Source of the DNA: an uncultured Chloroflexia bacterium
Lineage (GTDB): Bacteria; Chloroflexota; Ktedonobacteria; Ktedonobacterales; JADMIN01
DNA length: 64,000 nucleotides
Reading direction: 5' to 3'
Assembly (NCBI GenBank): GCA_963718915.1
Contig: CAVRAI010000003.1
Span: 642,103 to 706,102, forward strand
Shown here in pieces: positions 20,989-61,538 of this stretch. A program made the position numbers and the translations under genes. The notes under the pieces were generated by a model that had not been told where the DNA came from, ran no database searches, and saw nothing but the letters and a program-made list of their open reading frames with translations. Every line of letters starts with the position of its first letter. Within the stretch, counting starts at the first letter, position 1.

Positions 20989-21167
20989 GCCAGTCCTCCT
21001 GTGCGTCCAGCACATCCACGATTCACGAAATTACTCGCCCAGGCGGCCACGCCGTGAGGGGTACTTGCCAGGCAGTGTAACGCGGGCCTGGCTCTGCCGC
21101 GCCATCCTCAGAGGGAGGCCGAAAGGCTAGAATCTCTCCTCTCTTGAGCGGTGGCTTCTATCGACGC

Positions 21168-21764
21168 CTACGCGGCCACCATGGCGCCCATCCGTTTGAT
21201 CGCGAACGCCTTGATGATGTCGCTTATACCATGGAGGAGCGCCCAGACTCCCGAAAAGATGAGCAGTGTATAGGCCTGTGTGGCAAGAAACTGGCCGCCC
21301 GCCCAGAAGCCCAAAAGAATCATGATGATCCCGGAGATCAACCCGAGCCACCACATCGAATTGGTTGCCATGGTCGCGAATGCTTCAATCATCCAGAAGA
21401 TGCCGACCAGCGCGAACAGGAAGCCGAGCAGATTGGCCACCGCGAGGAAGGTCTGCACCGGGTTAACCAGGGCATAGATGCCTCCAATGAGGAGGATCAC
21501 CCCGAAGACAGCCCAGAGCCATCGCCAGCCGCCCGAGACAAAGGCAACGGTCAGTTCCTCTATTCCGGCCACCAGGAACATGATGCCAATCACGATACCG
21601 ACGAGCGTGAGCGAGCTATTCCTGAACTGCAGAATGACAATCGAGGCGAGAATCCACAGGATTCCACTGACGAGCCACCCCCACCACCACTTGCTCAGCT
21701 CTCGCGCCGCCTGGCGGGTCTCCGCGGTTTGTGGTTGCGCCGCGGCGTTCATCGACGTATCCAT
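21168..21764 (-). CDS. HdeD family (DUF308) membrane protein
   Basis: WWWGWLVSGILWILASIVILQF followed by repeated DUF308-like helices (FLVAGIEEL, LLIGGIYALVNP, MILLGFWAGG). Confidence 0.8.
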   Translation of the reverse strand: MDTSMNAAAQPQTAETRQAARELSKWWWGWLVSGILWILASIVILQFRNSSLTLVGIVIGIMFLVAGIEELTVAFVSGGWRWLWAVFGVILLIGGIYALVNPVQTFLAVANLLGFLFALVGIFWMIEAFATMATNSMWWLGLISGIIMILLGFWAGGQFLATQAYTLLIFSGVWALLHGISDIIKAFAIKRMGAMVAA

Positions 21765-37931: not shown

Positions 37932-39000
37932 TGCTAGCTATTGCCTCTCTCCTGCTTTTGCGCTGTCCGGTGCGGCTTCGGTGGCTACCGGTGGCTTCGG
38001 TGGCTTCGGTGGCTTCGGTGGCTTCGGTGGCTTCGGTGGCTTCGGTGGCTTCATCCGCATGAAGGCGCGCTGCCTGCAGGATCGCCGGAATATCCCCGCC
38101 CACCAGCCGCCGCCCCGCGATCCATGAGTTCAGCTCCGCGCCGAGGAGCAGGATGAAGCCGAGATAGTAGAAGAAGATGAGGATCACCACGGCGAATCCC
38201 GCGACGGAGCCGTAGTTGTCTGGCCGCAGGAAGCGGCTCACATAGAGGGGAAAGAGGCTGATGTATGGAACCAGCAGCACCGTGGCGAGCAGCGTCCCCG
38301 GAATAACCTGCCGGAGGCGAATGCGCCGGTTGGGCACGATGAGATAGATGGCGCCGAACAGGATAAACGCGGAGAGCACTGCCACGATATTCCCCAGCAC
38401 GCCAGCGAGCGCCGCCTGACCAGAGTCCGCCAGGTATGGATCGACGAGTCTGACGATGGCCGAGGGCAGCGAGAAGGCCAGCGCGATGAGTGGCGTGAGA
38501 ATGAGATACAGCGCGAGCATGCCAAACGCCATCAGTTGTTTCGGGATCAGATCGCGCCCGCGCACGCGGAAGATGATTCCGAAGCAGGTCTCGATGACCA
38601 TGAACAGGTTCGACCCGCCAAGCACCGACCCCACCAGGCCAATGAGGAAGAGCAGCCCGACATTCGTGGTCAGCTGGTTCGCGACCGCATGAAATATCTC
38701 GGCTCCGCCAGGGATAACCTGTGCAAACACCTGCTCGATATGCGCATAGATGCTGGAAGCATGGTCGCCAAGGATGAGTCCCACGGCAGCGAGCAAGAGG
38801 AGCAAGATCGGGAAGAGCGACATCAGGAGGTTATAAGCCAGCATCCCCGAGAGATTGAAGACCCAATCGTCATTGAGTTTGGTCCAGAAGTCGAGCAGGG
38901 GCTGGATCGTCTTGAGAACGCGCCGCACCAGGCTGAATCGCATCCAGGGCTGTTGTTGTTCCATTGGGTCGGCCTCGTGGAAGCGCTCGCGCGCCGTCAC
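37795..39000 (-). CDS. YihY/BrkB family membrane protein with an (EAT)n repeat tail; the annotated 3' end is probably an artefact of a frame change in the repeat
   Basis: FWTKLNDDWVFNLSGMLAYNLLMSLFPILLLLLA is typical of YihY. The GTG start at 39000 overlaps the upstream protease stop (GTGA). The tail overlaps the convergent AI-2E gene by 137 nt. Confidence 0.8.
   Translation of the reverse strand: MTARERFHEADPMEQQQPWMRFSLVRRVLKTIQPLLDFWTKLNDDWVFNLSGMLAYNLLMSLFPILLLLLAAVGLILGDHASSIYAHIEQVFAQVIPGGAEIFHAVANQLTTNVGLLFLIGLVGSVLGGSNLFMVIETCFGIIFRVRGRDLIPKQLMAFGMLALYLILTPLIALAFSLPSAIVRLVDPYLADSGQAALAGVLGNIVAVLSAFILFGAIYLIVPNRRIRLRQVIPGTLLATVLLVPYISLFPLYVSRFLRPDNYGSVAGFAVVILIFFYYLGFILLLGAELNSWIAGRRLVGGDIPAILQAARLHADEATEATEATEATEATEATEATGSHRSRTGQRKSRREAIASITSPSQVGPPRWHRVARSTRPSSPRREVARRMPTTDGSLAPARAI
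37974..38052. repeat. 9-nt tandem repeat (ggcttcggt), about 8 units, one 10-nt variant unit at 37983-37992
   Basis: Read directly from the sequence. Encodes the EAT repeats of the YihY tail on the minus strand. Confidence 0.9.
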
Positions 39001-40184
39001 CCGGTTGCGCTGGTAGGTCGTTCTCCCAGCGTCACCGTCATGGTCTGCTGGGAGGAGCCGCGCTGGACGGTCACCTGAACCCGCGTGCCGGGCGAGAGGG
39101 AGAGCAGGATGCCTGCCAGGTCAGCATTGCCGGTGACCCTGGCGCCATTCACGGCGACAATGATATCGCCCTGTTGCATGCCAGCCTGCTGCGCGGGGCT
39201 TTGTCCGGCGGCGTCAGAGACGAAGCCGGTTACCAGCACACCGGAATTGACGGGCAGGTTGTTTGCCGATGCCAGGTCTGGGGTCACGTCGGCGCCAGTG
39301 ATACCAAGGAAGCCCTGGCCGCTGTTTACCACACGGCCATTCTTCACGAGCTGGTCGGCGACGAATTTGACCCGGTTCACCGGGATCGCGAAGCCGATGC
39401 CCTCCGCCGCCGCGCCAGAGGAAGGGATGGTCGCCGATAAGGTGGGGATGCCAATCAGTTCCTCCTGCAAGTTCACCAGCGCCCCGCCCGAATTGCCTGG
39501 ATTGATGGGCGCGCTGGTCTGGATGAGGCCGGTCAGCACGCCTGCGGGGCCGTTGGGCGCTTCGCTGGCCGTCCGGTTGAGCGCGCTCACAATGCCAAAC
39601 GTGGCCGACTGTTGCAGGCCAAGCGGCGCACCAATCGCGAGGACGAATTCGCCGACCTGCACCGCGCTTGAATTTCCAAACTTGATCGGCCGTAACCCGG
39701 TGGCGCTGACCTTCAGCACGGCCAGGTCATCGGCAGGCGCCTCGCCGACGAGCGTCGCGGGTAGCGTCTTTCCATTGGAGAGCAAGACGTGAAATGAGGT
39801 GAACCCCTGAACCACGTGGTCGTTGGTGACAATGTTGCCGTCGCTGGAGATGATTTCGCCCGACCCAATCGCGCCTGATCCATCGGCGCTGGCGCTCTGC
39901 ACCTCGACGACGGAGGGCTGAACGGCGGGGATAACGTTCACGGGCGCCTGGGGAAGTGCGGATGCTCCACCAGATGACGATGATGACGAGGAGTTTGCCG
40001 TGGGGGTCGTTAATCCCTGTCCTGGATTCGTGCCGGGGAGCGCACAGCCGCCGATGAGCAGAGCGATGGCAAGCGCGATGGCGCCCAACCCGCCCGGCCA
40101 CCACGCTGACAACCTGGCATATCGCGCCGTGCGCCGCGCCCCTGTCGTGACGCCGCCACATGAATCATCTGCATTCACGGCCAT
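38997..40184 (-). CDS. S1C (HtrA/DegP-like) serine protease with C-terminal PDZ domain, membrane-anchored
   Basis: ORF 38997..40316, start preferred at ATG 40184. TM WWPGGLGAIALAIALLIGG. Triad context TNDHVV, DLAVLKV, GNSGGALVNL. PDZ-like tail (GVLVTGFVSDAAGQSPAQQAGMQQGDIIVAVNG). Confidence 0.85.
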   Translation of the reverse strand: MAVNADDSCGGVTTGARRTARYARLSAWWPGGLGAIALAIALLIGGCALPGTNPGQGLTTPTANSSSSSSSGGASALPQAPVNVIPAVQPSVVEVQSASADGSGAIGSGEIISSDGNIVTNDHVVQGFTSFHVLLSNGKTLPATLVGEAPADDLAVLKVSATGLRPIKFGNSSAVQVGEFVLAIGAPLGLQQSATFGIVSALNRTASEAPNGPAGVLTGLIQTSAPINPGNSGGALVNLQEELIGIPTLSATIPSSGAAAEGIGFAIPVNRVKFVADQLVKNGRVVNSGQGFLGITGADVTPDLASANNLPVNSGVLVTGFVSDAAGQSPAQQAGMQQGDIIVAVNGARVTGNADLAGILLSLSPGTRVQVTVQRGSSQQTMTVTLGERPTSATG

Positions 40185-40286
40185 TTCCCTTTGCGGTTGG
40201 TTGCCAGCCAGCGGTCTTCCGTGGGGATGATTCCTTACCAGCGGCGCGCAATGTGCTGTCGCTGGCGCGTTGCGCCGTAATCTGCG

Positions 40287-40321
40287 CATAAGCAATAAGC
40301 AATAAGCAATAAGCAATAAGC
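40287..40321. repeat. 7-nt tandem repeat (aataagc) x5
   Basis: cataagc aataagc aataagc aataagc aataagc, read directly. Lies upstream of the preferred protease start. Confidence 0.9.
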
Positions 40322-40456: not shown

Positions 40457-41005
40457 TTAGTGCATCTGCTGTGACTGCGAGGTATCGGTCTGGGTAGCCG
40501 CCATATCAGCCGCGGCGAGCCTGGACCCCATAGCGATCAAGGTCTCGGGGTGCACCATGCCCTGCGCCAGTACCACGCCGCCGGTCGACTGCAGCGCTTC
40601 TTTTAGCGGGATAGCCCAGCGATGCTCGACCAGCACCAGCACGCCCGTCGTCCCTTCCGGGATATCTTTGGCGATGTTCTTGATGTCATCGGCAGAGAGG
40701 CCGAAGTCGTGGTCGGAGAATGCCACAGCGCCCATTTCCGCGCCGGTTTCCACGCCTTCATCACCGGCGGCGCCATAGCCCAGCAGCCCCCCGATGACGG
40801 CGCCCATTTCCGCGCGCTGGTCGGTGGTGAGGTCGCTCGCGCCGAGCGATACCACTGTGCCATCCTTTTCTTTCTGTATGGCGAGCGCATCGAGCACGCG
40901 GATGGTACCCGACTGACTTGCCTTCTCCAACTCCTGAGCAATTCGCCCTTTCAGATTCTCATTTGGCAATCCCAATACGAAGAGTTGAACCGGACCCAGA
41001 GTCAT
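40457..41005 (-). CDS. DUF6325/DUF1269-related protein, intermediate form with a short Gly-rich insert
   Basis: ORF 40457..41113, start at ATG 41005 (AAGGAGA upstream). MTLGPVQLFVLGLPNENLKGRIAQELEKASQSGTIRVLDALAIQKEKDG, insert GAVIGGLLGYGAAGDEGVETGAEMGAV, then GTTGVLVLVEHRWAIPLKEAL. Confidence 0.6.
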   Translation of the reverse strand: MTLGPVQLFVLGLPNENLKGRIAQELEKASQSGTIRVLDALAIQKEKDGTVVSLGASDLTTDQRAEMGAVIGGLLGYGAAGDEGVETGAEMGAVAFSDHDFGLSADDIKNIAKDIPEGTTGVLVLVEHRWAIPLKEALQSTGGVVLAQGMVHPETLIAMGSRLAAADMAATQTDTSQSQQMH

Positions 41006-41219
41006 CTTTCTCTCCTTCCGCATGCGACTCGCCCGCGCCGACAATTGGCGCATGTCGGGGTCGCCATGGACGTACGCCTCCAGTGTAGTTCGAATCGTTA
41101 CTCGCGCCCTCATGCAGCGGGCGCGTTTCGCGGGTCAGCTTCAGGCACTGTGTTGGGTCAGCGCCAACCTCGCCCAGGGGTGAGCAGGCGCATAACGTCC
41201 ATCCCCGCACCCCGAAGGG

Positions 41220-41519
41220 CTAATACGACTGGGCGGGATTTCCCTGAATCTGATTGCGATTGCGCCATGCGCCGCCCGCGTAGGTCGTGATATCGAGGAG
41301 CAATCCGATCCCGATCCAGAACCAGCCCCAGCCGACGGCTGGCCAGACGAAGACATACATGATCGTCGTGAACGGCAGGAATGCGAGGCCAAGCAACGGC
41401 CCGACAAACGTGTTGAAGGCGCGGTCAACCAGGGGGGTGAATAACCACATGAAGAGCAGCGCCACACGCGGGAAGCTCGCGGCGAGAATGGCAAATAGGC
41501 ATCCACATCCTAATAACAT
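41220..41519 (-). CDS. Small membrane protein (99 aa), unknown family
   Basis: ORF 41220..41519. Three hydrophobic segments (LFAILAASFPRVALLFMWLF, LLGLAFLPFTTIMYVFVW, WFWIGIGLLLDI). Confidence 0.5.
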   Translation of the reverse strand: MLLGCGCLFAILAASFPRVALLFMWLFTPLVDRAFNTFVGPLLGLAFLPFTTIMYVFVWPAVGWGWFWIGIGLLLDITTYAGGAWRNRNQIQGNPAQSY

Positions 41520-41619: not shown

Positions 41620-41958
41620 TTACGACGGCGAAGGCGAAGGACTGGGCGCGGCTCCCGGAGCTTGCCCCGCTGGCGCCTGTGGAGGCGCGGCCTGCGGCGC
41701 GGCTGATTGCGGTATCCCCGGCATTCCTGACATTCCTGGCATTCCCTGCACCGCCACTGGCGCCATGGGATTTGCGGGCCGTGTGACGAGGTAGGCCAGC
41801 GCGCCGAGCCAGGGGAAGAAGATGATCAGCGCCACCCACAGCCCCTTCTGCCATCCAACAAGGTCTGGCCGTTTGACCGCATCCGCCAGCACCAGAAACC
41901 AGATGATGGTGAGAGGTATGAAGATGAATAGCAGCCAGAACCAATCCCAGGCAGTCAT
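41620..41958 (-). CDS. PLDc_N (PLD nuclease N-terminal) domain small membrane protein with Pro/Gly-rich tail
   Basis: MTAWDWFWLLFIFIPLTIIWFLVLADAVKRPDLVGWQKGLWVALIIFFPWLGALAYLV matches my recollection of the PLDc_N pattern (K..W...I...P.LG...YL). Confidence 0.65.
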   Translation of the reverse strand: MTAWDWFWLLFIFIPLTIIWFLVLADAVKRPDLVGWQKGLWVALIIFFPWLGALAYLVTRPANPMAPVAVQGMPGMSGMPGIPQSAAPQAAPPQAPAGQAPGAAPSPSPSPS

Positions 41959-48404: not shown

Positions 48405-49637
48405 ATGGTCACCAATGCTATGGTCGCCGACGATGCTGTAACAATCGTGCAGCAAGATCCCATTCAACTCGTTCAAGCAAAAGTGCCGCTCGACTCGGCC
48501 GCGGATACGTTCGCCACCCGAGATGCCTGGGGCCGCATACCGATTGCCATCGTACCAACCAGACTGAGCCATATCCGCAATGACCATATGATTGCGGCGA
48601 TTGCCATCGCGATCCTGGCGGTGCTGGCACAGACGGCGCTCTCGACCTGGTGGATTGTGCCGCTGATTATCCCACTCGCCCTCGCGCTCATCATCTACGC
48701 GCTCTGGAGCGCCTTCTTCGTATCCATCCCTGAAGGCGCAAGCGGACTCCTTAGCTGGGGTGGCAGATACCTGCGCACCATCAATAGTGGCATGCACATG
48801 GTGCCACCGTGGGTGGTTGTCTCGCACCTGGTGACACTGCGCGAGATCCCCTTCGACATCCCGGTGGTCGAGGCCCAGACCAAAGACAATGTGCGTGTGA
48901 CCGTCACCTCACTCTGCACCTTCGCGATAAACGATCCCTATCGTTTCGTCTTCGCGATCCCCGCCGACGATTTCAGCCAGGTGTTGCACGCCTCCTGCCA
49001 GGAGGAGTTGCGCGGTGTGATCCGCCAGGTTCGCGCTGAAGAGGTCGTTGACCTCGTGCGGGCAGAGCGGGAAAACCTTGCCGATGCCATCAGTGCGGAT
49101 GTGGCGCAGTATGGCATTGAGATCATGAAGATGAAAGTGACCTATGTCCGGCTCCCGGAAGAGTTCCTCCGGCTGCAGGAGCAGCGGCAACTGGCATTGT
49201 GGCAGCGCGAGGAGCAAGCCGATTCGCATGCGCTCGCGCGGAAGCAACAGGAGCATACGCACCTGCTTGCGCACCAGGAACTGAACGCGCGCCTCGACCG
49301 CGACCGCGATGCGCTCCAGTTGAAGATCCAGCAGGCCGAGGCCCTCAAGCAGGTCTCGAAGCTGGAGGCGGAAGCTGAGGAACTGCGGATGGCCAAGCTC
49401 GATGATCGTCTGCGCTCCTTCCCGCGCGCCGCGAAGTATGACCAGGAGATCGAGCGTCGCCGCGCGTCCACTGTTCCGCCAGCGCCCGTGAGCAACAGCC
49501 ATCCAAGGGTTCAGGGCGCCAACGTCGGCTCCGACACCGATCCTGGCTCTGACGACATCGCTCATCCGTTCGTGGCGCAGAATTCGCTCCAGCATTCCGC
49601 GCTGCGTTCCTTGGGGGCTAGGAATATACCGGGGTAG
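48405..49637 (+). CDS. SPFH/band 7 domain protein with long coiled-coil tail
   Basis: N-terminal TMs, then LRTINSGMHMVPPWVVVSHLVTLREIPFDIPVVEAQTKDNVRVTVTSLCTFAINDPYRFVF (SPFH core), then an E/Q/R-rich coiled coil. Confidence 0.85.
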   Translation: MVTNAMVADDAVTIVQQDPIQLVQAKVPLDSAADTFATRDAWGRIPIAIVPTRLSHIRNDHMIAAIAIAILAVLAQTALSTWWIVPLIIPLALALIIYALWSAFFVSIPEGASGLLSWGGRYLRTINSGMHMVPPWVVVSHLVTLREIPFDIPVVEAQTKDNVRVTVTSLCTFAINDPYRFVFAIPADDFSQVLHASCQEELRGVIRQVRAEEVVDLVRAERENLADAISADVAQYGIEIMKMKVTYVRLPEEFLRLQEQRQLALWQREEQADSHALARKQQEHTHLLAHQELNARLDRDRDALQLKIQQAEALKQVSKLEAEAEELRMAKLDDRLRSFPRAAKYDQEIERRRASTVPPAPVSNSHPRVQGANVGSDTDPGSDDIAHPFVAQNSLQHSALRSLGARNIPG

Positions 49638-50106: not shown

Positions 50107-51210
50107 TCAGGCGGCGTCAGTCTTTGGCAGAAGCCGCATAAGCCACTCCGGCCTGCTCGCCAGATAGGCTCCCAGCGCCACGACCAGGCCGATAAACAAG
50201 CCAACGACGAGCGTTCCTTGCAGGTTTGCCTGCACCAGCCCCGCCAGCGCCGCCGTGATCTCGTGCGCTGGGCTTGCCGTCACTGCGGCGGGGATGTTGC
50301 CCAATACGATCTGCGCCACCAGCATCGCCACGAGGAAGAGCGCCGCCGTCACGCCTCCCAGCAGCAGCAGCGTTCGCCATCGGTTCGCCGCGAGCCAGAG
50401 CGCCAGTATCGCCAGTACGAGTGTCACGAGAGGCAGGATGACTTGCAGCGCGTCCAGAATGGAGACGATGCGCTGCGCCGTTCTGAGAGTATCGCTCTGA
50501 AACAGGGTGATGAGGCCAAAATCAGGGGCAAGTTGGACGCCCAGCGCTTGCGCAAGCTCCTGCCGCGCCTGTGCTGGGGTCTGAGCGGCAGAGAGGTCGG
50601 GAATCGTTACGCCGAATGGGATGATGCCGGGCGCCGCCTGCTGCAGACGGCTCAGCATCGCGGCGAGTATTGGCAGCAGGTCTAACGTCACCGTGCCATT
50701 CGCCGTGCCGATTGTGGAGGTCTGGCCCCGCAGCAACGCGACCAGCCCGGCGTGACCCCGGCGCACCTGGGCCTGCCAGAGCGCCTGCCCCTGGTCGCTG
50801 TTGAGGAAATCCGCCGTGCGTGTCTGGACGAAGTCGTGGACGATGCGCTCCAGTGGGCCAGTGAGAAACCGACCGTCAATCGGCAGCGCGTTGGCCGTCC
50901 GGTTCTGGATGTCGAGCGCGGTGACGACCTGATCGGCGACATACTGGCTGACGCTGTTGATGACCTGCGGATCGCTCCCGAGTGGCGCGACCAATGCCAC
51001 GAAGTGATCCGTGTTCAGCATGGTCGATTCGACCCAGATCACCAGCGTGCTCGCCAGCACGCCGCTGCATGTCAGGATAACCAGTATGACCAATAGCCAC
51101 GTGGGCAATGTGCGACGACTGGCGCGGGGCGTGGGTGTAGGCGCCGCCTGACGTTCCGGCTGATGCTCGCTCGCACTGGCCATGCCCCACCTCCGGCGAC
51201 GAGCCAGCAA
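50107..51210 (-). CDS. Hypothetical integral membrane protein
   Basis: ORF 50107..51210 (ATG 51183 is also possible). N-terminal TM, a large middle domain and C-terminal TMs. Confidence 0.55.
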   Translation of the reverse strand: MLARRRRWGMASASEHQPERQAAPTPTPRASRRTLPTWLLVILVILTCSGVLASTLVIWVESTMLNTDHFVALVAPLGSDPQVINSVSQYVADQVVTALDIQNRTANALPIDGRFLTGPLERIVHDFVQTRTADFLNSDQGQALWQAQVRRGHAGLVALLRGQTSTIGTANGTVTLDLLPILAAMLSRLQQAAPGIIPFGVTIPDLSAAQTPAQARQELAQALGVQLAPDFGLITLFQSDTLRTAQRIVSILDALQVILPLVTLVLAILALWLAANRWRTLLLLGGVTAALFLVAMLVAQIVLGNIPAAVTASPAHEITAALAGLVQANLQGTLVVGLFIGLVVALGAYLASRPEWLMRLLPKTDAA

Positions 51211-51246
51211 AACGTCAGGCGCTCGCGGTGATTGCAGTTCTCGCGA

Positions 51247-51951
51247 TTACCGCTGTACGGCCGGATCCGTCCCGGCTGTGGGTGTCGACGGGAGCGCTAC
51301 GTTGGGCGCATAGGCGCTTGTGCGCTCGGGCCAGTTCGGCTCCAGATTGTATCGCTCGGGGAGGAGTATCTGAACCGCAGCGCCCGCTGCGGCAATCAAC
51401 AGGAAAACCAGTCCCCAGAACCACGAATCGCGGAGAAACGCGCCGACGACACCCCATTGTAGCGCTGCCAGCGGGATGCGGCCAATCGTCAGCAAAATCC
51501 CCGTCAGGATCATGCTTGCTCCGAGCAGCGCGGTGAGCGCGATAACGAATAACTGTGGCACATTCAGCAGAACGACCAGAATGCAAAGCCCCAGCGCCAC
51601 GACAAGTCCGACGATGAAGAGTACGAAGCCCGACGTGACGCCCAACCCCGACAGGAATCCGGTGACGAGTTCGTAGGCAAAGGCCCCGGCCAGCACGACG
51701 ACTGCCCCATAGTAGAAGAAGTAGGCGATCACCGCGCAGAAGATGCCGACGACGAAGCCGAACACCCAGCCGCTGATGGTTGCCAGGAAGCCCCCGCCGA
51801 ACAGCTCCTGAATTGCCTGGGCGGTTACCACAAATCCGCCGAAGAAGCCGATGATTGGTAGCACCAGGACGAAGACCCGGAAGCCAGCGAAGCAGAGCGC
51901 CAGCCCAATGAGGATCTGTAGCAGAGACGCAAAGATGATCTGGAAGAACAT
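51247..51951 (-). CDS. DUF4203-like polytopic membrane protein
   Basis: Inner start ATG 51951 of ORF 51247..51978. MFFQIIFASLLQILIGLALCFAGFRVFVLVLPIIGFFGGFVV... with 7 hydrophobic helices. Confidence 0.55.
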   Translation of the reverse strand: MFFQIIFASLLQILIGLALCFAGFRVFVLVLPIIGFFGGFVVTAQAIQELFGGGFLATISGWVFGFVVGIFCAVIAYFFYYGAVVVLAGAFAYELVTGFLSGLGVTSGFVLFIVGLVVALGLCILVVLLNVPQLFVIALTALLGASMILTGILLTIGRIPLAALQWGVVGAFLRDSWFWGLVFLLIAAAGAAVQILLPERYNLEPNWPERTSAYAPNVALPSTPTAGTDPAVQR

Positions 51952-52041
51952 ACCTCTCACCCTCCATCTATGGCACATGCCGTCCGCGCATCTGGTAATC
52001 AGCGGGCGGACGGCTCTCTTGTGGCTCCGCTAGAAGCCGCG

Positions 52042-52974
52042 CTAGAAGAGCGCGCCGCCAGTGAGCTGATTGACGATCGTTTTCATGCGATTCGAGGAGA
52101 TAGCGAAACCGATGCCATTGGCGGCAACCCCGGTCGAAGGCTCTACCGCTGCGAGGGTCGGGATGCCGACAAGCTGCCCTTGCAGGTTGACCAGCGCCCC
52201 ACCACTATTGCCAGGGTTGATCGGCGCGCTCGTCTGGATCATGCCAGTGATCGTGAATCGCTGGTTATCCACCACCTCGGTCGCGGAACGATTGAGCGCG
52301 CTGATGATGCCGGATGTGGCCGATTGCTCGAGTCCCAGTGGGCTGCCCACGGCAAGGGCAAACTCGCCGACCACCACCTTGCTGGAATCGCCAACTGCTA
52401 TCGGCTTGAGGTCGGTCGCATTGACTTTCAGCACCGCCAGGTCTTCGGAGGGCGCCTCGCCGATCAGCGTGGCGGGAATCTGCTGGCCATTTGCCAGCAG
52501 CACTGTATAGGTAGAGAGGCCGTGAACGACGTGGCTATTCGTCACGATGTAGCCATCCGAGGTCAGAATCTCGCCTGACCCGATGCTTCCGCCCGTGAGG
52601 CCGCCGCGCCCCTGTATCTGCACGACCGATGGATCGACGTTATGGATGACGTTGATGGTGGTCGCCTCGATGTCCGTACCGGAGGGCGCCGATGAGGTAG
52701 ACGACGTGCCATTAGTCCTCCCAGCTAACGTCCCCGCCCCAAAGATGAGACCGAAAAGCACAGCCGCGCCGAGGGCAATCCAGAGCGGTCGCCAGGAATG
52801 GCCTTGTCTCGTCTGTTGCGCGGTCGGTGGTGGCGCGGATGGCGCAATCGATGGCGTGGCTTGTGGTGCGACAGGTGGCGTGGCTGGAGAGGTTGCGCCA
52901 TTCACTGGCATACTGGTAGAAACCGGCGAATTAGGTACGTTGAAGGCGCGTGGATCCCTGGAATTGTCTTGCAT
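52042..52974 (-). CDS. S1C (HtrA-like) serine protease without PDZ domain
   Basis: ORF 52042..53016, start preferred at ATG 52974 (AGGAG 7 nt upstream). TM RPLWIALGAAVLFGLIFGAG. TNSHVV, DLAVLKV, GNSGGALVNL. The protein ends right after the protease domain. Confidence 0.8.
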   Translation of the reverse strand: MQDNSRDPRAFNVPNSPVSTSMPVNGATSPATPPVAPQATPSIAPSAPPPTAQQTRQGHSWRPLWIALGAAVLFGLIFGAGTLAGRTNGTSSTSSAPSGTDIEATTINVIHNVDPSVVQIQGRGGLTGGSIGSGEILTSDGYIVTNSHVVHGLSTYTVLLANGQQIPATLIGEAPSEDLAVLKVNATDLKPIAVGDSSKVVVGEFALAVGSPLGLEQSATSGIISALNRSATEVVDNQRFTITGMIQTSAPINPGNSGGALVNLQGQLVGIPTLAAVEPSTGVAANGIGFAISSNRMKTIVNQLTGGALF

Positions 52975-53531
52975 ATAGTGGCTCCTGGTTGGGACGTTCT
53001 GCAGCCCCTTCAGCATTGCCTTACAGCGCGGACTCCAGAAAGCCCTGTTTTAATGGAAGTCTGCCGCTCCACATGAAGTACCCGGACGCCTCACACATGA
53101 TGGAGTATCAGGTATGAGGCGTCGGGCAGATACGCAGACATCGCTGGTCACAAGTGTACGAGTTGGCAGCGCCTGTTTCACCACCTGTCGGGTGAGTCCA
53201 AACGACGTGTTTTGTAGCTGTCCAAAGCTACGACACGCGCCTATCCCGAAGGGGAGCATCGGCTTGCCATGTTGCGTCGCCGATGTGCCATGTCGGGCGC
53301 TCTGGGCCATCCATCGGTGCGCCAACTCACCCTGGAGGGAGATAGCCGCTCACCTTGATGTCTCACCCAGGGTGTGAAGCTCATAGGCAAGGCGCATGCC
53401 TATACTTGGTTTATGCTGGCTGGATTCTGGGGGATTTTCGGCGTCGAGTCAGCGGCTTTCAATGCTGGATTATTGATCCATGGTGTTGACAGAACCATTC
53501 TGTATGCTTTGCCCGAAGGAGAAGAAACGAC

Positions 53532-54107
53532 ATGAGCGATCTGGTTGCCATCACATACCCAGATATCAATCAGGCACAGAAAACACTCGATACGCTGAAG
53601 CGCATGGTGGTTGAGCATCTGCTTGAGCTAGACGATGCCGTCTATGTCACCAAGGATAGTAACGGCGCGGTGGATATGCATCAGATGATTAACCTGCCCG
53701 CGGCGGGCGCGGCGACTGGCGGCGCGACCGGCGCCCTCTGGGGAACGCTGATCGGCCTGCTCTTCCTCTCGCCACTCGCGGGGGCTGCCATTGGGGCAGC
53801 GGTTGGCGCGGGCACGGGCGCCATCGCGGGAAAGATGAGCGACTATGGTATTGACGATAACTTTGTCCAAGACCTGAGCGCCCATATGCCGCCGAATAGC
53901 TCGGCCATCTTCGTCCTGGTGCGCAATGTGACGGTGGATAAGGTGATCCCAGAGATCAGCAAATATGGCGGCACGGTCATGCGTACCTCGCTCTCGGACG
54001 ATGCGGAACAACGCCTTCAGGCAGCGCTCGCGCAACGATCAACCGCTGGGGCGTCGGCCGCCGCAACTCCACCGACAACCACTGACACGCCATCGCAGCC
54101 AGCGTAG
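53532..54107 (+). CDS. DUF1269 domain-containing membrane protein (cassette B)
   Basis: AAGGAGAAG upstream. MSDLVAITYPDINQAQKTLDTLKRM..., Gly-zipper GAATGGATGALWGTLIGLLFLSPLAGAAIGAAVGAGTGAIAG, YGIDDNF...PNSSAIFVLV. Confidence 0.8.
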   Translation: MSDLVAITYPDINQAQKTLDTLKRMVVEHLLELDDAVYVTKDSNGAVDMHQMINLPAAGAATGGATGALWGTLIGLLFLSPLAGAAIGAAVGAGTGAIAGKMSDYGIDDNFVQDLSAHMPPNSSAIFVLVRNVTVDKVIPEISKYGGTVMRTSLSDDAEQRLQAALAQRSTAGASAAATPPTTTDTPSQPA

Positions 54108-54240
54108 GCTGGTTAGAAGACAAACAGTCTGAGAAAAGTCTGAGAAAAGCCGGAGGCATCGTGCCATAGATGCCTCTTGCGGAACATAAGCAGGCGCGCG
54201 AGAGCTACGCGCGCCTCGCCAGATGATTGCGAGGCCTGAG

Positions 54241-54672
54241 ATGGGACTTGGCCCGGTCGAATATGTCATGATTGAGTTTCCAGGCGCTACCGAGATTGGC
54301 GACATCGAGCCAGCGCTTCAGGAACTGGTGTCCTCAGGGACTGTCCGCATTATCGACCTGATGTTTATCAAGAAAGATGCGGAGGGGCACATCCAGGCGC
54401 TGGAGGTTGACCAACTCGACAGCGTGAGCGCTCACCGGTATGAGGAGCTGGACGCCGAGGTCGACGACCTGGTGAATATGGAAGATATCGAAATCGCTGC
54501 GGCGGAACTATTGCCTGATAGCATCGCGGTGGTGCTGGTCTGGGAGGATGCCTGGGCCAAACGGTTCGGGGAGACCATGCGGGCCGCGGGCGGGCGTGTG
54601 GTGGAAATCGAGCGGATTCCTAGCGAGGTGGTCGAAGCGGCTATGAGGGCAAGCGTGGGAGCGGATGCGTAG
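54241..54672 (+). CDS. DUF6325-like soluble protein (cassette B)
   Basis: ORF 54223..54672, start preferred at ATG 54241. MGLGPVEYVMIEFPGATEIGDIEPALQELVSSGTVRIIDLMFIKKDAEG. Confidence 0.7.
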   Translation: MGLGPVEYVMIEFPGATEIGDIEPALQELVSSGTVRIIDLMFIKKDAEGHIQALEVDQLDSVSAHRYEELDAEVDDLVNMEDIEIAAAELLPDSIAVVLVWEDAWAKRFGETMRAAGGRVVEIERIPSEVVEAAMRASVGADA

Positions 54673-54706
54673 AGCCTGAACTGCGGTAGAGAGGACGAAC
54701 CCGATT

Positions 54707-55120
54707 ATGATGCGACGAGGTGGAGCACTGGGACGGCGCGGCCCTGGCCTGCTTGGAACGATGGCGCGAACCGCGGTGATCGCGGGGACGGCCACGGCGG
54801 TCTCCAAAGGGGTGAGTGGTTCAATGAATCAACGCGCCGCACAACAACAGACGGCGCAGCAACAGCAACAGCAGGCGGCATTTGACGCGGGCTACCAGCA
54901 GGCGCAGACGCAAGAACAGGCGCAACAACAGCAACAGCAACAGCAGCAGATGCAGGCGGCTCAGGCTCAGGCTGGGGCGCCACAGGCCGCTAGCCCGGCC
55001 TCGACTACCGATGCCATGATCGCGCAATTGCAACAACTGGCCGAGCTACAGAAGCTGGGGATTCTGACGCCAGACGAATTCGCCCAGCAGAAGGCGAGGG
55101 TTTTAGGCGGCGCGAACTAA
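54707..55120 (+). CDS. SHOCT domain-containing protein with poly-Q linker (cassette B)
   Basis: MMRRGGALGRRG..., Q-rich linker, C-terminal IAQLQQLAELQKLGILTPDEFAQQKARVLG. Confidence 0.75.
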   Translation: MMRRGGALGRRGPGLLGTMARTAVIAGTATAVSKGVSGSMNQRAAQQQTAQQQQQQAAFDAGYQQAQTQEQAQQQQQQQQQMQAAQAQAGAPQAASPASTTDAMIAQLQQLAELQKLGILTPDEFAQQKARVLGGAN

Positions 55121-55686: not shown

Positions 55687-57027
55687 CTAGTTCGCGGCAA
55701 GCGGGACGGTGAACCAGAAGGTCGAGCCTTCGCCGGGCACGCTCTCGACGCCAACTTTTCCTCCCATCTGTTCGACCAGCTGGCGACAGATGAACAGGCC
55801 GAGGCCAAGTCCCTCGGCGCTAAATTTGCTGGACCCGCTGGCGCGGTAAAAGCGCTCCCACACACGGGGCTGATGCTCCAGGGCGATACCGACACCATGA
55901 TCGCAGACAGCCACCCGCGCCTCGCCGTCGCCGCGCTCCAGCCGCACCTCGACCGGCTGGACATTTGGTGAATACCTCAGCGCATTGGAGAGATAGTTGC
56001 CGACCACCTGCGCGATGCGATCCGCATCGGCCACGACGGGAATGGCCTCCGTGGGTGATTCCAGATGGATGATTCGTCTGCGCCACACCAGCCGCTGGCC
56101 AGCGACCGTATCATGCAGGATCTCGCTGAGGTCGCAGCGCGACGTATGTGTCTCGGCGATGCCGACGCGAATGCGCGTGATATCGGCAAGATCGGAGAGC
56201 AGGCGCTCTGCCATGTTGGTATTGCGGTCGACGAGCGCGAGAGCCGCCGTGGCGCGCGCCACATGCATCGAGGTAGAGTCGGAGGCCATGCGGCTATCCT
56301 CCACCCGCTTCAGCTGGCGCTGCGCGATCTGTGTGCCCAGTTTCATGGTTGTGAGTGGCCCGCGAAGCTCATGGACGATCTGCATGAGCGCCGCTTCGGT
56401 GTTTTCGCTATCCTGGCGCAGTTGTCCCACCGTGTTCGCCCATGCCTCGCGCTCATACATCAGTCGCCCATGATCGAGCGCCAGCGCGACCAGTTGCGCC
56501 AGCGCGCGTGTCCGCAAGAGAACATCCGGCATGACACGCTTACCAAATCGAAACTCGACGATCAACGCGCCCAGCCGTCGCTCGCTGACCAAGAGCGGCA
56601 GCACGAGCCGGACGATTCTGCGTGTGGTGGAGTCGGGAGAGGCAGGATCATGGGTATCACCTTCCTCCCGAACCGCGTGCAGTCCCGTCGAACGAGAGAT
56701 GGATTCGTTGCCTGCCTCGATTTCGGGGATGTCGGCGCATATCTGATCCCACCAGGCGGATGCGCGGCCCGGCGCAACGCCAGCCGTAGCGATCAAGCGT
56801 GGCCGCCTGGCGCGCGCTGACCTCAAAACGATCCCCACCGTCTCGCTATAGAGGGTATAGCGAACCAGATTGGCAAGCCATGTTGCGAGGCCAGTCTCGT
56901 CACGCCAATCGTCGGCGCCAACCAGTGTTGTCTGGCGAGCATCGGTGGGCACGGCAAAACTTACCGTTCCATGTGCCCATCGTCCCTGGTCTCTTCTCGC
57001 ATGCATACCACACCTCCCGGGGTTCAT
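55687..57027 (-). CDS. Cytoplasmic sensor histidine kinase (GAF-like N-domain, HisKA, HATPase_c)
   Basis: H-box [12 protein letters not shown]-box [11 protein letters not shown]-boxes DHGVGI and [18 protein letters not shown]. No TM segment seen. Confidence 0.85.
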
Positions 57028-57338
57028 TAGTTGAGGGTTCGTTCAGCGCGCACTGTCTGCGGTAAACGCGCGCGGGAGACGCATCACGGCGCTCAATGAG
57101 GATGCGCCCGACGGTTTCTCCTGCTGTGCAGCCAGGGCCTGTCGCTCCAGCGTGTGTAACGTCAACTGAAGGGAGGCTCCTGCCGCACTGCTCACTCTAA
57201 AACGAGAATCCCTGCGCCGCATGCAACAAAGGTTGCAAAAATGAAGTGGCAAGTTTTGTGAGAATACCCCTTATGGTGATGCGGTTTTGTATGATAAAGT
57301 ACAGATTGCAGCCTATTCGTCGTAGGAAAACAGCCTGT

Positions 57339-57367
57339 TTGTATGTGTTAACAGGATCAACATACAA
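57339..57367. promoter_or_regulatory. Candidate operator: inverted repeat TTGTATGT-N13-ACATACAA in an AT-rich divergent intergenic region
   Basis: Read directly. Lies between the kinase (minus strand) and the response regulator (plus strand), in the most AT-rich stretch of this part of the window. Confidence 0.3.
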
Positions 57368-57580
57368 CCATCTTAACAACTTGCTTCCTGTATCTGTGCA
57401 TCGCGCTCTCAGGCCAGAAGATAGCAAATGGTATACATGGGGAAATGCTCGACAGGCGGGTGTGATCGCACAAGGCGTTGTAGGGGTGTAGGTGTGTAGG
57501 TGTATGCAGGAGGAAGACTGTGTATCAAGCGCCGCGAAGGTGTAGCTGATAGTTGCGGCCTGCGTGCGTTTGACGTTCCC

Positions 57581-57647
57581 CGATAACAGCGCGATAACAG
57601 CGTGGCATATCTGGCGTATCTGGCATCTTTGGCATCTTTGGCATCTT
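57581..57647. repeat. Two adjacent tandem repeats: 11-nt (cgataacagcg) x2 and 9-nt (tggcatctt-like) x5
   Basis: Read directly. About 200 nt upstream of the response-regulator start. Confidence 0.85.
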
Positions 57648-57849
57648 TAGCAAGAGTCAGGGGCGGTGCGGGCGGACGTGCGTCTGGGTATTGGCGATCC
57701 CGCGAGGCCGAGCGGAGGGATCATTTGGTGTGCGAGAGCGGCTTCATCGAACGCTTGCGGTTGGAAGAGGCTCACACACGCGCTCAAATGAGTTCGGTAC
57801 GCGGAACAGGGATCATCGCGACAGTGCCCCACCACGAAAGAGGCGAACG

Positions 57850-58503
57850 ATGGTGAGAATCCTGGTGGCGGAAGACCATGAAGTCATGCGGCGCGGTCTG
57901 CGTGATCTGCTCCTGGAGCACCAGGGATGGGAGGTGTGCGGGGAGGCGCGCAATGGGCGTGATGCGCTCGATCTCGCCGTCCAGTTACGCCCCGACGTCG
58001 CCGTCGTGGATATCTCCATGCCAATACTCAGCGGCCTGGAGGCTACACGCCACATTCGCCAGCAATCTCCTGATACGGAGGTGCTCATTTTTACCCAGTA
58101 CGAGAGCGGCCAGTACGTTCAAGAGGCGTTGCGTGTCGGCGCACAGGGATATATCCTCAAGTCCGACGCGGCGCTACACCTGACCGAAGCGGTAGAGGCG
58201 CTGGCCAGACACGAGCCGTTCTTCTCGCCGGGCATCTCGAAAACGATCCTGAATACGTTCCTGAACTCGGAAGAGCAGAAGCGTGATGAGGTTGCGTTAT
58301 CCACGCTCACGACGCGCGAGCGTGAGGTGATGCTGATGCTCGCCTCGGGTAAAAGGAATCGTGATGTGGCCGATGAGCTGTACATTGCCCCAGGTACTGT
58401 CATCACGTATCGTGCTAAAATCATGAAAAAGCTGGGGGTGTCTTCCATTGCCGGGGTGATCCTCTTTGCCGCGCGGAACAACCTCATCGTATTCCAACGA
58501 TAG
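57850..58503 (+). CDS. NarL/FixJ-family response regulator (REC + LuxR-type HTH)
   Basis: Inner start ATG 57850 of ORF 57691..58503. MVRILVAEDHEVMRRGL...DVAVVDISMP. HTH LTTREREVMLMLASGKRNRDVADELYIAPGTVITYRAKIMKKLG. Confidence 0.9.
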   Translation: MVRILVAEDHEVMRRGLRDLLLEHQGWEVCGEARNGRDALDLAVQLRPDVAVVDISMPILSGLEATRHIRQQSPDTEVLIFTQYESGQYVQEALRVGAQGYILKSDAALHLTEAVEALARHEPFFSPGISKTILNTFLNSEEQKRDEVALSTLTTREREVMLMLASGKRNRDVADELYIAPGTVITYRAKIMKKLGVSSIAGVILFAARNNLIVFQR

Positions 58504-59192
58504 GCAATGTACGCGATATGGCGTAGAAACCATGTGAAACGGGCATCTTTGCATACAGTGATTATCGACATAAAATACTACAAAAGCTGTATACAAAGTC
58601 CCATCGACTGGTGCTATAGTACTGGTGTGCTCAAAACGCACCGATACCTTTGTGCAAGGGCATCGTCGCTCCTCCGTCGAATGGCTAATGTACCTGATAC
58701 TACAGTGTGTCATACGACAATGCGTCCAATGCCTTAGTCCTACCAGTTAACCCCCTCTCAGGGCGCAGTTCTGTGCGTTCACGTACCATCTTCAGGTACC
58801 CCTGGGAGAGATGCACAGGTCCTTGCAAAGTGTCCTGGATCTGCCACACCGCGTGGCAAACGTAGCACAAGAGCCTGGAGAGTTCTTCCCGATCTTCCTT
58901 GTGACAGGACGGATCCCAACAATTACCAGGAACTGGGATGGAAGACGGGATAGGATATAAGCGGTGATTGCCTCGCTGCCCGTACGGCAAAGAGATGCTG
59001 AGGGATGTGGTAATGCATCCCTGAACATTGGCGAGGCGCTCATTGTGGCGGCATGGCGCACGTCGTTGCACCCCGGCAAGCCGACGTGGCGGAGCCGACA
59101 CTGCCGCGATGCTAGTGCGGCGCTTCACGAGCGCCCTAGCTGCTGACTCTCCTCTCAGGAATCTCCGCATTACCCAAGGGAGGAGACGATCC

Positions 59193-61538
59193 ATGGGTAT
59201 CCCTCTCGTCACAGTTCGGCATGGGCTTGTGAGCGTGTCGATGGACATTGGCTCCGCTGAATGGTTCACCTTGCTCGATAGGATCGACATTTTTGCCGTT
59301 GAGGCACACGATATCTCGTTCCTCGTGCGACGCATGCATGATGGAGCGTTCGCGCTCTGGCTGGCCTTTTGCTCGATTGACAATGACCCACGCTGTGTTG
59401 TGGTGGGTTCGGCGTCGGAACTCACGCGAGAGCGGCTGCTGACGGCAGCGCACCAGCTCGCGAATTGGGATACGGTCACTCCCGAATTTCAGGTAGAGCT
59501 GGAGCGAGAAAGCGCGCCTATGCCGCAGCTGTCTGTCACCAGCCCGGATCTCCTCGTGACCAAGTTAGAGATGCCTACCGTCACCAGCAGGACGCTGGTT
59601 CGCACACAAGCCATTGACCGCATGGCGCGCGCGCTGGATTATCCTCTCACCGTCGTCAACTCGCCTTCTGGCTATGGCAAGACGACCCTCGTGGCAGCAT
59701 GGGCGAGCGAGACCCCTGCGCGGGTGGCTTGGTTGCTGCTGGATGAGAACGACAACGACCCGGTGCGCTTCTCCACCCATCTGCTCGCCGCTCTCGACCG
59801 GGTTGTCCCTGGTCTGCTTACCGCGGTACTACCCTATGTGCAGAACGCGCAGACGCATCTCTCTGATGGATCGCTCATCTCCCGGCTCATTAATTCACTG
59901 ACCTCGACTGATGGTCACATTGCCCTCGTGCTCGATGGGTACCATACGATCAGTCAAGACAATGCGGTGATCCAGAACGCGATGAACTACTTCATCGAAA
60001 ACCTGCCACCCCACGTCCATGTCATCGTCCTGACTCGTACCAGCGTCCCCTTGCGCCTCCCATGGTTGCGCGTTGCCGGGCGGCTGTTTGAATTGCGCAT
60101 TGATGACCTGCGCTTCACGGAAGACGAAGCGCGCGTATTTCTGGAGCGACGGACAGGCTCGGACGTAGCGCCTGAGGTCAGCGCGCGCATTCACCGACGC
60201 ACTGAGGGCTGGGTGGCTGGGCTGCAGCTTGCCGCGTTCGCGCTCGAAGATTCGCGCACTCCCGCGGAAAATGTGGCAGACCTCCTGAGTGAGAATCGCA
60301 ATGTCGTCGATTTCATCGCGGAGGAGGTGCTCACGCGACTGCCGCATGCGGTCAGCGAGAATGTCTTGTGGATGGCCGCACTGGACCGGTTCAACGTGGC
60401 GCTCTGCGACGCGCTGCCAGGGATCGTGGACAGCCAGACGACGCTGGAGACCCTCGAGCGCGAAAACGCATTCCTCGTCCCGGTCGATGACCCCTCCGGC
60501 TGGTACAGGTTCCATAGACTCTTCCGGGAGGTGCTCTGGAAGCGGCTTCAACGGACGCACAAAGAAGAGTTGGCCGAGATGCATCGCCAGGTGAGCGCCT
60601 GGTATGAAGCCCATGGCATGACGCGCGATGCGGTTCACTATGCGTTGCATGCGAGCGATGAGCACGCGGTTCTGCGCATCGTTCGTGAACTTGCCAATCG
60701 TGTCTTCGAGAGCGGATCCTCCCCGTCCGACCTCCGGGCACTGGCGCAATGCCTTGATCTTCTGCCCGCGGACATGATACAGAAGCATCCGCAGCTCTGT
60801 CTGATTGAAGCGCAGATGTTCGTACAATCAGGCGATCTCGACGAGGCCGAACTGTGGCTGGAAGCCGCCGATACGCATATCTCTCAGGATATGACAGTGG
60901 ATGGCGAGACAGCTGCATCAGGCGACCATATGCGTATGCGGGACGAGATCATGCAGGTTCGGGGCATCATCGCGCGACTGCGCAAGGGAAGCCCTCCCGC
61001 CGATGGCTGGCAGTCAGCCCTGATGCACGCGCCGCACGCATCGCATTCATCGCATGCGTGGGAGCCTCAAGCCGCCATGTTGTCCACACTGTCCATATCG
61101 TCCGTATCGTCCGTGCCACCGCGCGCGCAACGCATGCCCCAGCGTACCGATGCGCACCATTCCTCCACCGTTCCTGGACCTCTGGTCATTTACGAGCGAG
61201 TCACCGCGCGCGAAAAGGAGGTTCTGGTGCTGCTCGCCAAAGGCGAACCCAATCAGGTGATCGCTGACGATCTCACCATCGCCGTCGCGACGGTCAAGCG
61301 CCATCTGAGCAACCTCTACCGCAAGTTACAGGTGGATAACCGGACTCAGGCGGTGTGGCGAGCCTGGACCCTTGGCCTGCTCGACGACCTTCCTGCCGAT
61401 GGCGCGGATACATTGGCGCCTCATAGCGACCGGACTAAGCCGGACGAGCGCGGTGCGGGTATGAGTATGCCTCGGTGGAATAACTTCCCCAACAGCAATG
61501 GCAACGGCAATCTTCCCCCTGGCATCACGCCGGGATAG
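59193..61538 (+). CDS. Large LuxR-family regulator (MalT/LAL-like: unknown N-domain, P-loop NTPase, helical repeats, LuxR HTH)
   Basis: ORF 59028..61538, start preferred at ATG 59193 (GGGAGGAG upstream). Walker A NSPSGYGKTTL. C-terminal LTAREKEVLVLLAKGEPNQVIADDLTIAVATVKRHLSNLYRKL. Confidence 0.85.
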   Translation: MGIPLVTVRHGLVSVSMDIGSAEWFTLLDRIDIFAVEAHDISFLVRRMHDGAFALWLAFCSIDNDPRCVVVGSASELTRERLLTAAHQLANWDTVTPEFQVELERESAPMPQLSVTSPDLLVTKLEMPTVTSRTLVRTQAIDRMARALDYPLTVVNSPSGYGKTTLVAAWASETPARVAWLLLDENDNDPVRFSTHLLAALDRVVPGLLTAVLPYVQNAQTHLSDGSLISRLINSLTSTDGHIALVLDGYHTISQDNAVIQNAMNYFIENLPPHVHVIVLTRTSVPLRLPWLRVAGRLFELRIDDLRFTEDEARVFLERRTGSDVAPEVSARIHRRTEGWVAGLQLAAFALEDSRTPAENVADLLSENRNVVDFIAEEVLTRLPHAVSENVLWMAALDRFNVALCDALPGIVDSQTTLETLERENAFLVPVDDPSGWYRFHRLFREVLWKRLQRTHKEELAEMHRQVSAWYEAHGMTRDAVHYALHASDEHAVLRIVRELANRVFESGSSPSDLRALAQCLDLLPADMIQKHPQLCLIEAQMFVQSGDLDEAELWLEAADTHISQDMTVDGETAASGDHMRMRDEIMQVRGIIARLRKGSPPADGWQSALMHAPHASHSSHAWEPQAAMLSTLSISSVSSVPPRAQRMPQRTDAHHSSTVPGPLVIYERVTAREKEVLVLLAKGEPNQVIADDLTIAVATVKRHLSNLYRKLQVDNRTQAVWRAWTLGLLDDLPADGADTLAPHSDRTKPDERGAGMSMPRWNNFPNSNGNGNLPPGITPG

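Follow-up and report, generated by a model that had tools for sequence, protein, structure and literature searches.

Two cassettes of small genes on one contig

The window analysed here is the whole 64,000-nucleotide stretch of contig CAVRAI010000003.1 from an uncultured Chloroflexia bacterium of the Ktedonobacterales, and it contains two cassettes of three small plus-strand genes whose products belong to the families DUF1269 (PF06897), DUF6325 (PF19850) and SHOCT (PF09851). Cassette B consists of DUF1269-B (53532-54107; Pfam E = 2.6e-35, 121.2 bits, cut-off 26.9), DUF6325-B (54241-54672; E = 4.4e-10, 40.2 bits, cut-off 23.4) and the small SHOCT partner SHOCT-B (54707-55120; E = 2.4e-5, 24.4 bits, cut-off 27); these open reading frames (ORFs) and Pfam matches bear out the genes and families named in a preliminary description of the stretch. 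Cassette A consists of SHOCT-A, a divergent small SHOCT protein (1135-1614; E = 3.2e-9, 36.7 bits, cut-off 27), DUF6325-A, from a divergent branch of its family (1659-2114; E = 9.6e-8, 32.7 bits, cut-off 23.4), and DUF1269-A (2189-2770; E = 4.6e-39, 133.2 bits, cut-off 26.9). SHOCT-B scores slightly below the SHOCT cut-off; its homologues have precomputed PF09851 hits, and its SHOCT domain occupies residues 106-133 of 137, that is, within 50 residues of the C-terminus.

Pairwise BLASTP placed the similarity of the A and B proteins well above chance expectation. DUF1269-B and DUF1269-A share 54% identity over 168 amino acids (E = 2e-65), an alignment that includes the motifs quoted in the preliminary description, and DUF6325-B and DUF6325-A share 37% over 137 amino acids (E = 1e-27). 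The SHOCT proteins align significantly only across their C-terminal 37 residues (41% identity, E = 1e-7), so the proposed paralogy of the two cassettes stands for DUF1269 and DUF6325 and, for SHOCT, in that last segment only. SHOCT-A and SHOCT-B are nevertheless built alike, with a basic N-terminus that leads into a run of small residues, then a linker rich in glutamine, proline and alanine, and the SHOCT domain. The order in B is DUF1269, DUF6325, SHOCT and in A it is SHOCT, DUF6325, DUF1269. Opposite orders on the same strand make a mirror arrangement and not the circular permutation that had been described; rotations of A would read DUF6325, DUF1269, SHOCT or DUF1269, SHOCT, DUF6325.

Within cassette B, DUF1269-B is preceded by the ribosome-binding site GAAGGAG, the start of DUF6325-B at 54241 agrees with the family N-terminus MxxGPVEY, and SHOCT-B begins 34 nucleotides past the DUF6325-B stop codon with its own ribosome-binding site. 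SHOCT-B carries the motif RRGPGL..TAVIAGTATAV, a 62-residue linker rich in glutamine and alanine, and the C-terminal SHOCT domain. The plus-strand spacer between DUF1269-B and DUF6325-B (54108-54240, 133 nucleotides) contains a stem-loop at 54153-54176 and a second, GC-rich hairpin at 54192-54216. The first stem is kept in four related loci (L001, L003, L004 and L081) with some compensatory changes, and RNAalifold predicts pairing between the region around the DUF1269-B stop codon, which is invariant, and the ribosome-binding region of DUF6325-B. The spacer hairpin could be a terminator or attenuator that has no U-tail, or a translational coupling element. Promoter and terminator scans gave no usable plus-strand signal for either cassette. 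In cassette A, SHOCT-A is placed upstream of DUF6325-A, a position held by its orthologues in loci L086-L089. A gene for a DUF7144 membrane protein (534-1103, plus strand; Pfam E = 1.1e-17) ends 31 nucleotides before SHOCT-A and is kept in L086, L087 and L089.

The two cassettes are not recent copies. The DUF6325 distance between A and B is 0.67, while homologues from other phyla lie at a median distance of 0.52 from B, and DUF6325-A ranks 87th of 90 among the relatives of DUF6325-B. The nearest relatives of DUF1269-A are P0192, P0189 and P0182, not DUF1269-B, and in a neighbour-joining tree the common ancestor of DUF1269-A and DUF1269-B spans 118 of the 132 sampled sequences. These distances and the tree indicate that the cassettes are ancient paralogues or independent assemblies; recent block duplication is ruled out, and the earlier argument that all three partners had been retained through a duplication is misleading.

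DUF6325 and its SHOCT partner across genomes

Genomes, one per species, were scanned with a DUF6325 alignment narrower than a first, broader one that proved too diverse. The scan returned at least 591 relatives, of which the best 80 loci (44-92% identity; Chloroflexota, Actinomycetota and Dormibacterota) were inspected. ORFs at these loci were called mechanically, and families were assigned by hidden Markov models (HMMs) built from the window proteins, with spot checks against Pfam. The closest loci, L001-L004, come from Ktedonobacterales or Chloroflexia assemblies and are 90-92% identical.

Downstream sequence was sufficient in 76 loci, and in 71 of these the gene directly after DUF6325, on the same strand, encodes a SHOCT protein, with a median gap of 25 nucleotides. 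The background in the outer flanks was nine SHOCT genes in 676 kb, or 0.013 per kb. A reciprocal check gave the same arrangement, as distant homologues of SHOCT-B (P0294 and P0286, 46-49% identity) each lie directly after a DUF6325 gene. What is conserved is thus not the triad but DUF6325 with a small SHOCT gene behind it, a pairing close to obligate among the loci inspected. The preliminary description had asked for a survey of the triad in Chloroflexota and Actinomycetota; what emerges is a non-random DUF6325-SHOCT association, with DUF1269 adjacency found mainly in Ktedonobacterales. A literature search for DUF6325 returned no paper, and the portions of the DUF1269 and SHOCT literature available to us contain no description of the pair, in keeping with the earlier statement that the system was undescribed.

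The SHOCT partner has about 100 residues and consists of an N-terminal motif, a low-complexity linker rich in glutamine, alanine and proline, and the C-terminal SHOCT domain. The motif, RRGPGLvGmAArTAVVAGTATAVsgrv.rrQ, is a run of small residues flanked by arginines; it is conserved across phyla, and the version in SHOCT-B recurs in partners from 53 loci. SHOCT domains are also found on the 5′ side of DUF6325: membrane proteins with a PLDc_N-SHOCT fusion lie directly upstream in 18 loci and in the flanks of 25, and such fusions are the commonest gene immediately 5′ of DUF6325 in other phyla.

DUF1269 is a less constant neighbour. A DUF1269-like gene lies within 6 kb of DUF6325 in 12 of the 80 loci and is the next gene essentially only in Ktedonobacterales-type loci. 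In look-ups centred on DUF1269 (P0169, P0189, P0138 and P0187), all four loci had neither partner. Both arrangements reported for the window are nonetheless stable. L001, L003 and L004 retain the B order, as do L081/L082, which are 64% identical and have unrelated flanks. Three metagenome loci, L086, L087 and L089 (73-95% identity), retain the A order, flanked by the DUF7144 and K+ channel genes; L088 stops short of the DUF1269 position. A third order containing all three families is found in L104 (373-2944), where a fusion of a receiver domain (REC) to DUF6325 is followed by a canonical SHOCT partner, DUF1269 and a K+ channel.

Gene fusions bear on where the pair acts. DUF6325 is fused to SHOCT in P0455, which was found on two independent contigs and retains the partner motif internally, and in P0336, which is given little weight because it comes from a single 846-bp low-coverage contig. 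As a separate observation, the P0455 gene in L101 (323-3471) abuts a polyphosphate kinase 1 gene, its stop codon overlapping the kinase start. REC-DUF6325 fusions were found in P0394 and P0440, and in L099 (4001-5290) a hybrid kinase, a NarL-type regulator, a REC-DUF6325 fusion and a canonical SHOCT partner follow one another. Together the fusions suggest that DUF6325 and its partner are cytoplasmic and tied to phosphorelay signalling. Pfam found no receiver domain in the DUF6325 proteins of the window. Cassette B does lie beside genes for a histidine kinase (55687-57027, minus strand), a NarL-type response regulator (57691-58503, plus strand) and an AAA+/TPR/GerE regulator of the LAL type, resembling MalT (59028-61538, plus strand), all recognized by Pfam, and this neighbourhood is syntenic in L001-L003. 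LAL-type regulators occur in 21 of the 80 DUF6325 loci, in both Chloroflexota and Actinomycetota (L007, L016, L017, L026, L027, L068 and others), and may be transcriptional regulators of the pair.

The gene directly after cassette A encodes a K+ channel with a TVGYG filter (2843-3712, plus strand; Pfam Ion_trans_2 E = 2.4e-10), and this channel is kept beside the cassette in L089 and L090. Across the sample, 10 of the 80 loci have a K+ channel gene with a T[VT]GYG filter no more than 6 kb away, and in five of them (L011, L041, L061, L072 and L080) it adjoins the cluster. All seven of the channels checked matched Ion_trans_2, and the channel after DUF1269 in L104 is not orthologous to that of cassette A. 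Bacterial genomes usually contain only a few Ion_trans_2-type channels, so about 1% of 12-kb windows would hold one by chance, a background that is estimated and not measured. In the available text of PMC3581485, SHOCT is described as fused to three Ion_trans_2 channels.

DUF1269 and DUF6325 as branches of one superfamily

The preliminary description treated DUF1269, DUF6325 and SHOCT as three separate families. Profile comparison instead shows that DUF1269 and DUF6325 are homologous, which makes the three families really two. A 20-sequence DUF1269 alignment and a 24-sequence DUF6325 alignment matched in hhalign at 97.3% (E = 2.2e-11) from end to end of both proteins, the glycine-zipper segment of DUF1269 being left out of the alignment. 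The two share an [FY]P motif after strand 1, a D...KDxxG motif in the β-hairpin, PNSSA before strand 3, and a GG turn, and an iterated DUF1269 HMM recruited 97 DUF6325 ORFs.

AlphaFold2 models of DUF6325-B and DUF1269-B (mean predicted local distance difference test score, pLDDT, 74 and 69) have the same order of elements, β-α-β-β, an insert, and β-α-β-α, indicating a common domain of ferredoxin-like type, β-α-β-β / β-α-β. The small domains ranked best by Foldseek were CutA1, GlnK/PII, IlvN and MTH889, at E-values that are not significant (0.05-0.7; E = 0.06 for the CutA1 match 2zom) and TM-scores of 0.46-0.59 normalised to the target. The predicted fold agrees with the part of a preprint available to us (10.1101/2024.07.07.602159), in which DUF1269 is a ferredoxin fold with an embedded glycine zipper. 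Profile searches of the PDB with both families gave insignificant matches and no PDB relative, the DUF1269 search yielding a weak match to the glycine-rich core of the prion protein. Calmodulin EF-hands, proposed by weak matches to DUF6325 residues 42-84 (E = 0.2-0.4), were rejected because the model has a β-hairpin there.

The two branches differ in what lies between the half-domains, a hydrophobic glycine-zipper hairpin in DUF1269 and a short acidic segment in DUF6325. In the DUF1269-B model the insert is a helical hairpin whose zipper region has a pLDDT below 50. Residues 57-103 of DUF1269-B match Gly-zipper_YMGG, at a score just under the cut-off, and Gly-zipper_Omp; this protein is of a long-zipper subtype, DUF1269-A of a short-zipper subtype. 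The highest 19-residue hydropathy is 2.0-2.5 in DUF1269 (2.13 in DUF1269-B, 2.39 in DUF1269-A) and 0.85-1.6 in DUF6325. By these sequence criteria DUF1269 is the hydrophobic branch, with predicted membrane insertion, and DUF6325 the soluble one.

A further minus-strand gene of the window bridges the families. This hybrid member (40457-41113, probable start 41005 with MTLGPVQ) exceeds both Pfam cut-offs, DUF6325 matching its N-terminal half (E = 2.4e-9) and DUF1269 its C-terminal half (E = 9.9e-8, 32.7 bits). It has a degenerate acidic, glycine-rich loop where the zipper would be and no hydrophobic segment, with a highest hydropathy of 0.95, and is predicted to be soluble. In L047, L049 and L064 the gene after its relative encodes an arginine-rich SHOCT protein. 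Just upstream of the hybrid gene lie minus-strand genes for a two-helix PLDc_N membrane protein (41620-41958) and for a small membrane ORF that has no Pfam match (41220-41519).

The fourth member of the superfamily in the window is a DUF1269-like membrane protein (20290-21015, minus strand; E = 3.5e-18, 66.2 bits; highest hydropathy 2.06), whose gene adjoins one for a DUF308/HdeD-like membrane protein recognized by Pfam (21168-21764, minus strand). A neighbourhood of DUF1269 and DUF308 recurs in L094, and in L075 DUF6325 is followed by a protein that resembles DUF308 by sequence, outside the Pfam scan. About 1 kb from the DUF1269-like gene is a PPK2-like polyphosphate kinase gene (22083-22919, minus strand), named by resemblance and not Pfam-scanned; its proximity, like that of the polyphosphate kinase 1 gene to P0455, may be coincidence.

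Proposed function, alternatives and surrounding genes

We propose that DUF6325 may be a cytoplasmic signalling or regulatory domain with a PII/CutA-like fold, and that the SHOCT protein would bind it and hold it at the inner face of the membrane. DUF6325-SHOCT would then be the two-polypeptide counterpart of DUF1269, which would anchor itself through its zipper hairpin. In the Ktedonobacterales the anchored and soluble paralogues would be co-expressed and would probably share a membrane target, on which they could act as mixed oligomers. That target would most likely belong to ion homeostasis, especially K+ channels, and in some lineages two-component or LAL-type regulators could supply the input. 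For the overall picture, a membrane-tethered cytoplasmic PII/CutA-like regulator with a membrane paralogue, acting in ion homeostasis, we see the chances as about even. The more detailed version, an undescribed module of the Terrabacteria in which SHOCT-tethered DUF6325, under phosphorelay input in some lineages, would govern K+ channels or membrane ion flux, DUF1269 being its membrane-embedded arm, is a tentative suggestion and rather unlikely to hold in full.

This proposal has analogues among small ferredoxin-like signalling proteins acting at membranes, to which the cluster may be likened in kind. PII proteins are regulators of membrane channels and transporters. They (those of the GlnK-AmtB, SbtB-SbtA and PstA/DarA systems among them) and CutA1 are small domains of ferredoxin-like type, both models match this group best at the level of fold, and the K+ channel links found here would suit a PII style of action. 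Unlike PII and CutA1, DUF1269 has a membrane hairpin between its halves and DUF6325 an acidic segment, and PII systems have nothing that corresponds to the obligatory SHOCT partner. Tethering by SHOCT has precedents: the available text of PMC3581485 (Eberhardt 2013) and PMC11237479 describes SHOCT or SHOCT-like domains as membrane-proximal tethers, there too as a C-terminal two-helix domain on an otherwise simple protein, and the latter, a survey of PSP partners, predicts SHOCT-like domains to be intracellular and to localise proteins to the inner membrane leaflet. The SHOCT proteins known from those texts include fusions with Ion_trans_2, Band-7 and PLDc_N membrane proteins, whereas here the domain is carried by a dedicated protein, about 100 residues long, that has a conserved N-terminal motif of its own and is paired with one specific family, a pairing that does not occur in the portions of either paper available to us. 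DUF1269-B matches both Gly-zipper_YMGG and Gly-zipper_Omp, but its zipper is a hairpin inside a soluble domain and not, as in proteins of those families, a free-standing small membrane protein or lipoprotein. The REC-DUF6325 fusions within kinase and regulator operons resemble response regulators with non-DNA-binding output; DUF6325-A and DUF6325-B differ from these in having no receiver domain, and a link to the kinase and regulator at 55687-58503 is hypothetical.

Several observations weigh against the tethered-regulator proposal. No P-II match was found by Pfam at E ≤ 0.01 among the window proteins scanned, no Pfam match to CutA1 was found and the likeness is at the level of fold, and the Foldseek matches are non-significant and come from models of moderate confidence (pLDDT 69-74). 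DUF6325 occurs in five loci (L031, L058, L067, L075 and L079) that have no SHOCT gene, and the sample consists of the 80 closest of at least 591 genome hits. The N-terminal segment of the partner is only marginally hydrophobic (median 1.34), and the idea that its motif is a detached DUF1269 glycine zipper was rejected (hhalign 0.2%). In the single assay tried in the part of PMC3581485 available to us, SHOCT was not an oligomerisation domain. For the K+ channel enrichment the background is roughly estimated, and the loci include several that are mutually related. Cassette B has no K+ channel nearby. Since DUF1269 stood alone in all four look-ups, it may cooperate with the pair only in certain lineages or not at all. 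The proposed interaction and localisation are drawn from sequence, models and gene context.

The main rival holds that only DUF6325 and SHOCT form a functional unit and that DUF1269 is independent, its adjacency in Ktedonobacterales being an accident of paralogue placement or synteny. The solitary DUF1269 genes, the 12 of 80 loci with a DUF1269-like gene nearby, next-gene adjacency essentially confined to Ktedonobacterales, and the structured spacer that sets DUF1269-B apart from the tight DUF6325-SHOCT pair all speak for it. It does not readily account for the occurrence of all three families in three distinct gene orders (A, B and L104) or for the persistence of the B triad at 64% identity despite changed flanks, and 12 of 80 is probably well over chance for a family of few copies per genome. 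Moreover, the DUF1269 next to the pair resembles stand-alone DUF1269 from other phyla far more than it resembles the DUF6325 beside it, so the adjacency is no relic of recent tandem duplication. We consider this independence of DUF1269 unlikely, yet a serious candidate. A different role for DUF1269, in which its zipper oligomer would be a small pore or leak channel and DUF6325 and SHOCT its gate, or dominant-negative subunits of mixed oligomers, strikes us as improbable. Glycine zippers drive the packing of homo-oligomeric channels, which fits the Pfam Gly-zipper matches and the weak likeness to the prion core; the best fold matches of both families are trimer-forming proteins, and both paralogues are encoded together in cassettes A and B. 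Against this, there is no evidence of pore activity for DUF1269, the zipper region of the DUF1269-B model is of low confidence, and most DUF6325-SHOCT pairs have no DUF1269 gene nearby, so that regulating DUF1269 cannot be their primary role.

Two further alternatives place the cluster elsewhere. Export or anchoring of the SHOCT protein by a Tat-like twin-arginine signal, to act in the envelope apart from a cytoplasmic DUF6325, is suggested by the N-terminal arginines followed by a weakly hydrophobic stretch rich in alanine, glycine and threonine, and by the HtrA-like envelope proteases that neighbour superfamily members in the window. A Tat signal peptide was rejected, however, as RRGPGL departs from the consensus (S/T)RRxFLK, an arginine breaks the hydrophobic stretch, and hydropathy is only 1.34; this was judged without a dedicated signal-peptide predictor. 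In the P0455 fusion the motif lies internally, the receiver-domain fusions put DUF6325 in the cytoplasm, and the prediction of intracellular SHOCT-like domains in the available text of PMC11237479 also disagrees, which leaves export very unlikely. That the cluster belongs to an accessory system already known (gas vesicles, anti-phage defence, a toxin-antitoxin pair or the like) is disfavoured and hardly credible. Its one indication was a match of SHOCT-A to GvpG (E = 3e-4), rejected as an identity because the 21.2 bits fall below the cut-off of 30.6 and involve the SHOCT helices only; no gvp genes were found among the neighbour genes scanned. PADLOC matched none of the six cassette proteins, NCBIfam gave no meaningful names, and Rfam found no element anywhere in the window, while the DUF6325-SHOCT pair is chromosomal and widespread with stable synteny.

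If the tethered-regulator proposal is right in its PII-like aspect, a classic family of signal proteins would gain a membrane-tethered branch. Sequence and gene context would in any case give three orphan families a solid, testable association: DUF1269, DUF6325 and SHOCT occur widely without a known function, and testable roles can now be offered for them. Clustered at 50% identity, DUF6325 sequences form about 5,600 groups, and relatives of the SHOCT partner number at least 2,385. DUF6325 would be the first specific partner family for SHOCT, a little-studied domain that could be tested against it, and as the soluble twin of DUF1269 it merges two orphan families. The receiver fusions and K+ channel neighbours make ion or osmotic stress and partner binding the natural things to test, and homologues occur in Streptomyces and Kitasatospora, genera that include genetically tractable species.

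Other genes of the window lie close to members of the superfamily. Divergent from DUF1269-B is a gene for an HtrA-like serine protease that has no PDZ domain (52042-53016, minus strand; Pfam Trypsin_2 E = 3.2e-31), syntenic in L001, L003 and L004, and a second HtrA-like gene (38997-40316, minus strand) follows the hybrid member; the two proteins are 63% identical over the protease domain, and each is encoded beside a superfamily member. Downstream of the first protease gene are two minus-strand ORFs that have no Pfam match (50107-51210 and 51215-51967); counterparts 62-81% identical in L001 and L004 make it probable that both are true genes, of an unknown family. Membrane-maintenance genes abound in the window, which encodes a PLD-type, cardiolipin-synthase-like enzyme after the K+ channel gene (3818-5200, plus strand), a MarC-family protein (19524-20180, plus strand), a BrkB/YihY-family protein with a C-terminal (EAT)n repeat (37795-39000, minus strand) and a Band-7/SPFH protein (48405-49637, plus strand).

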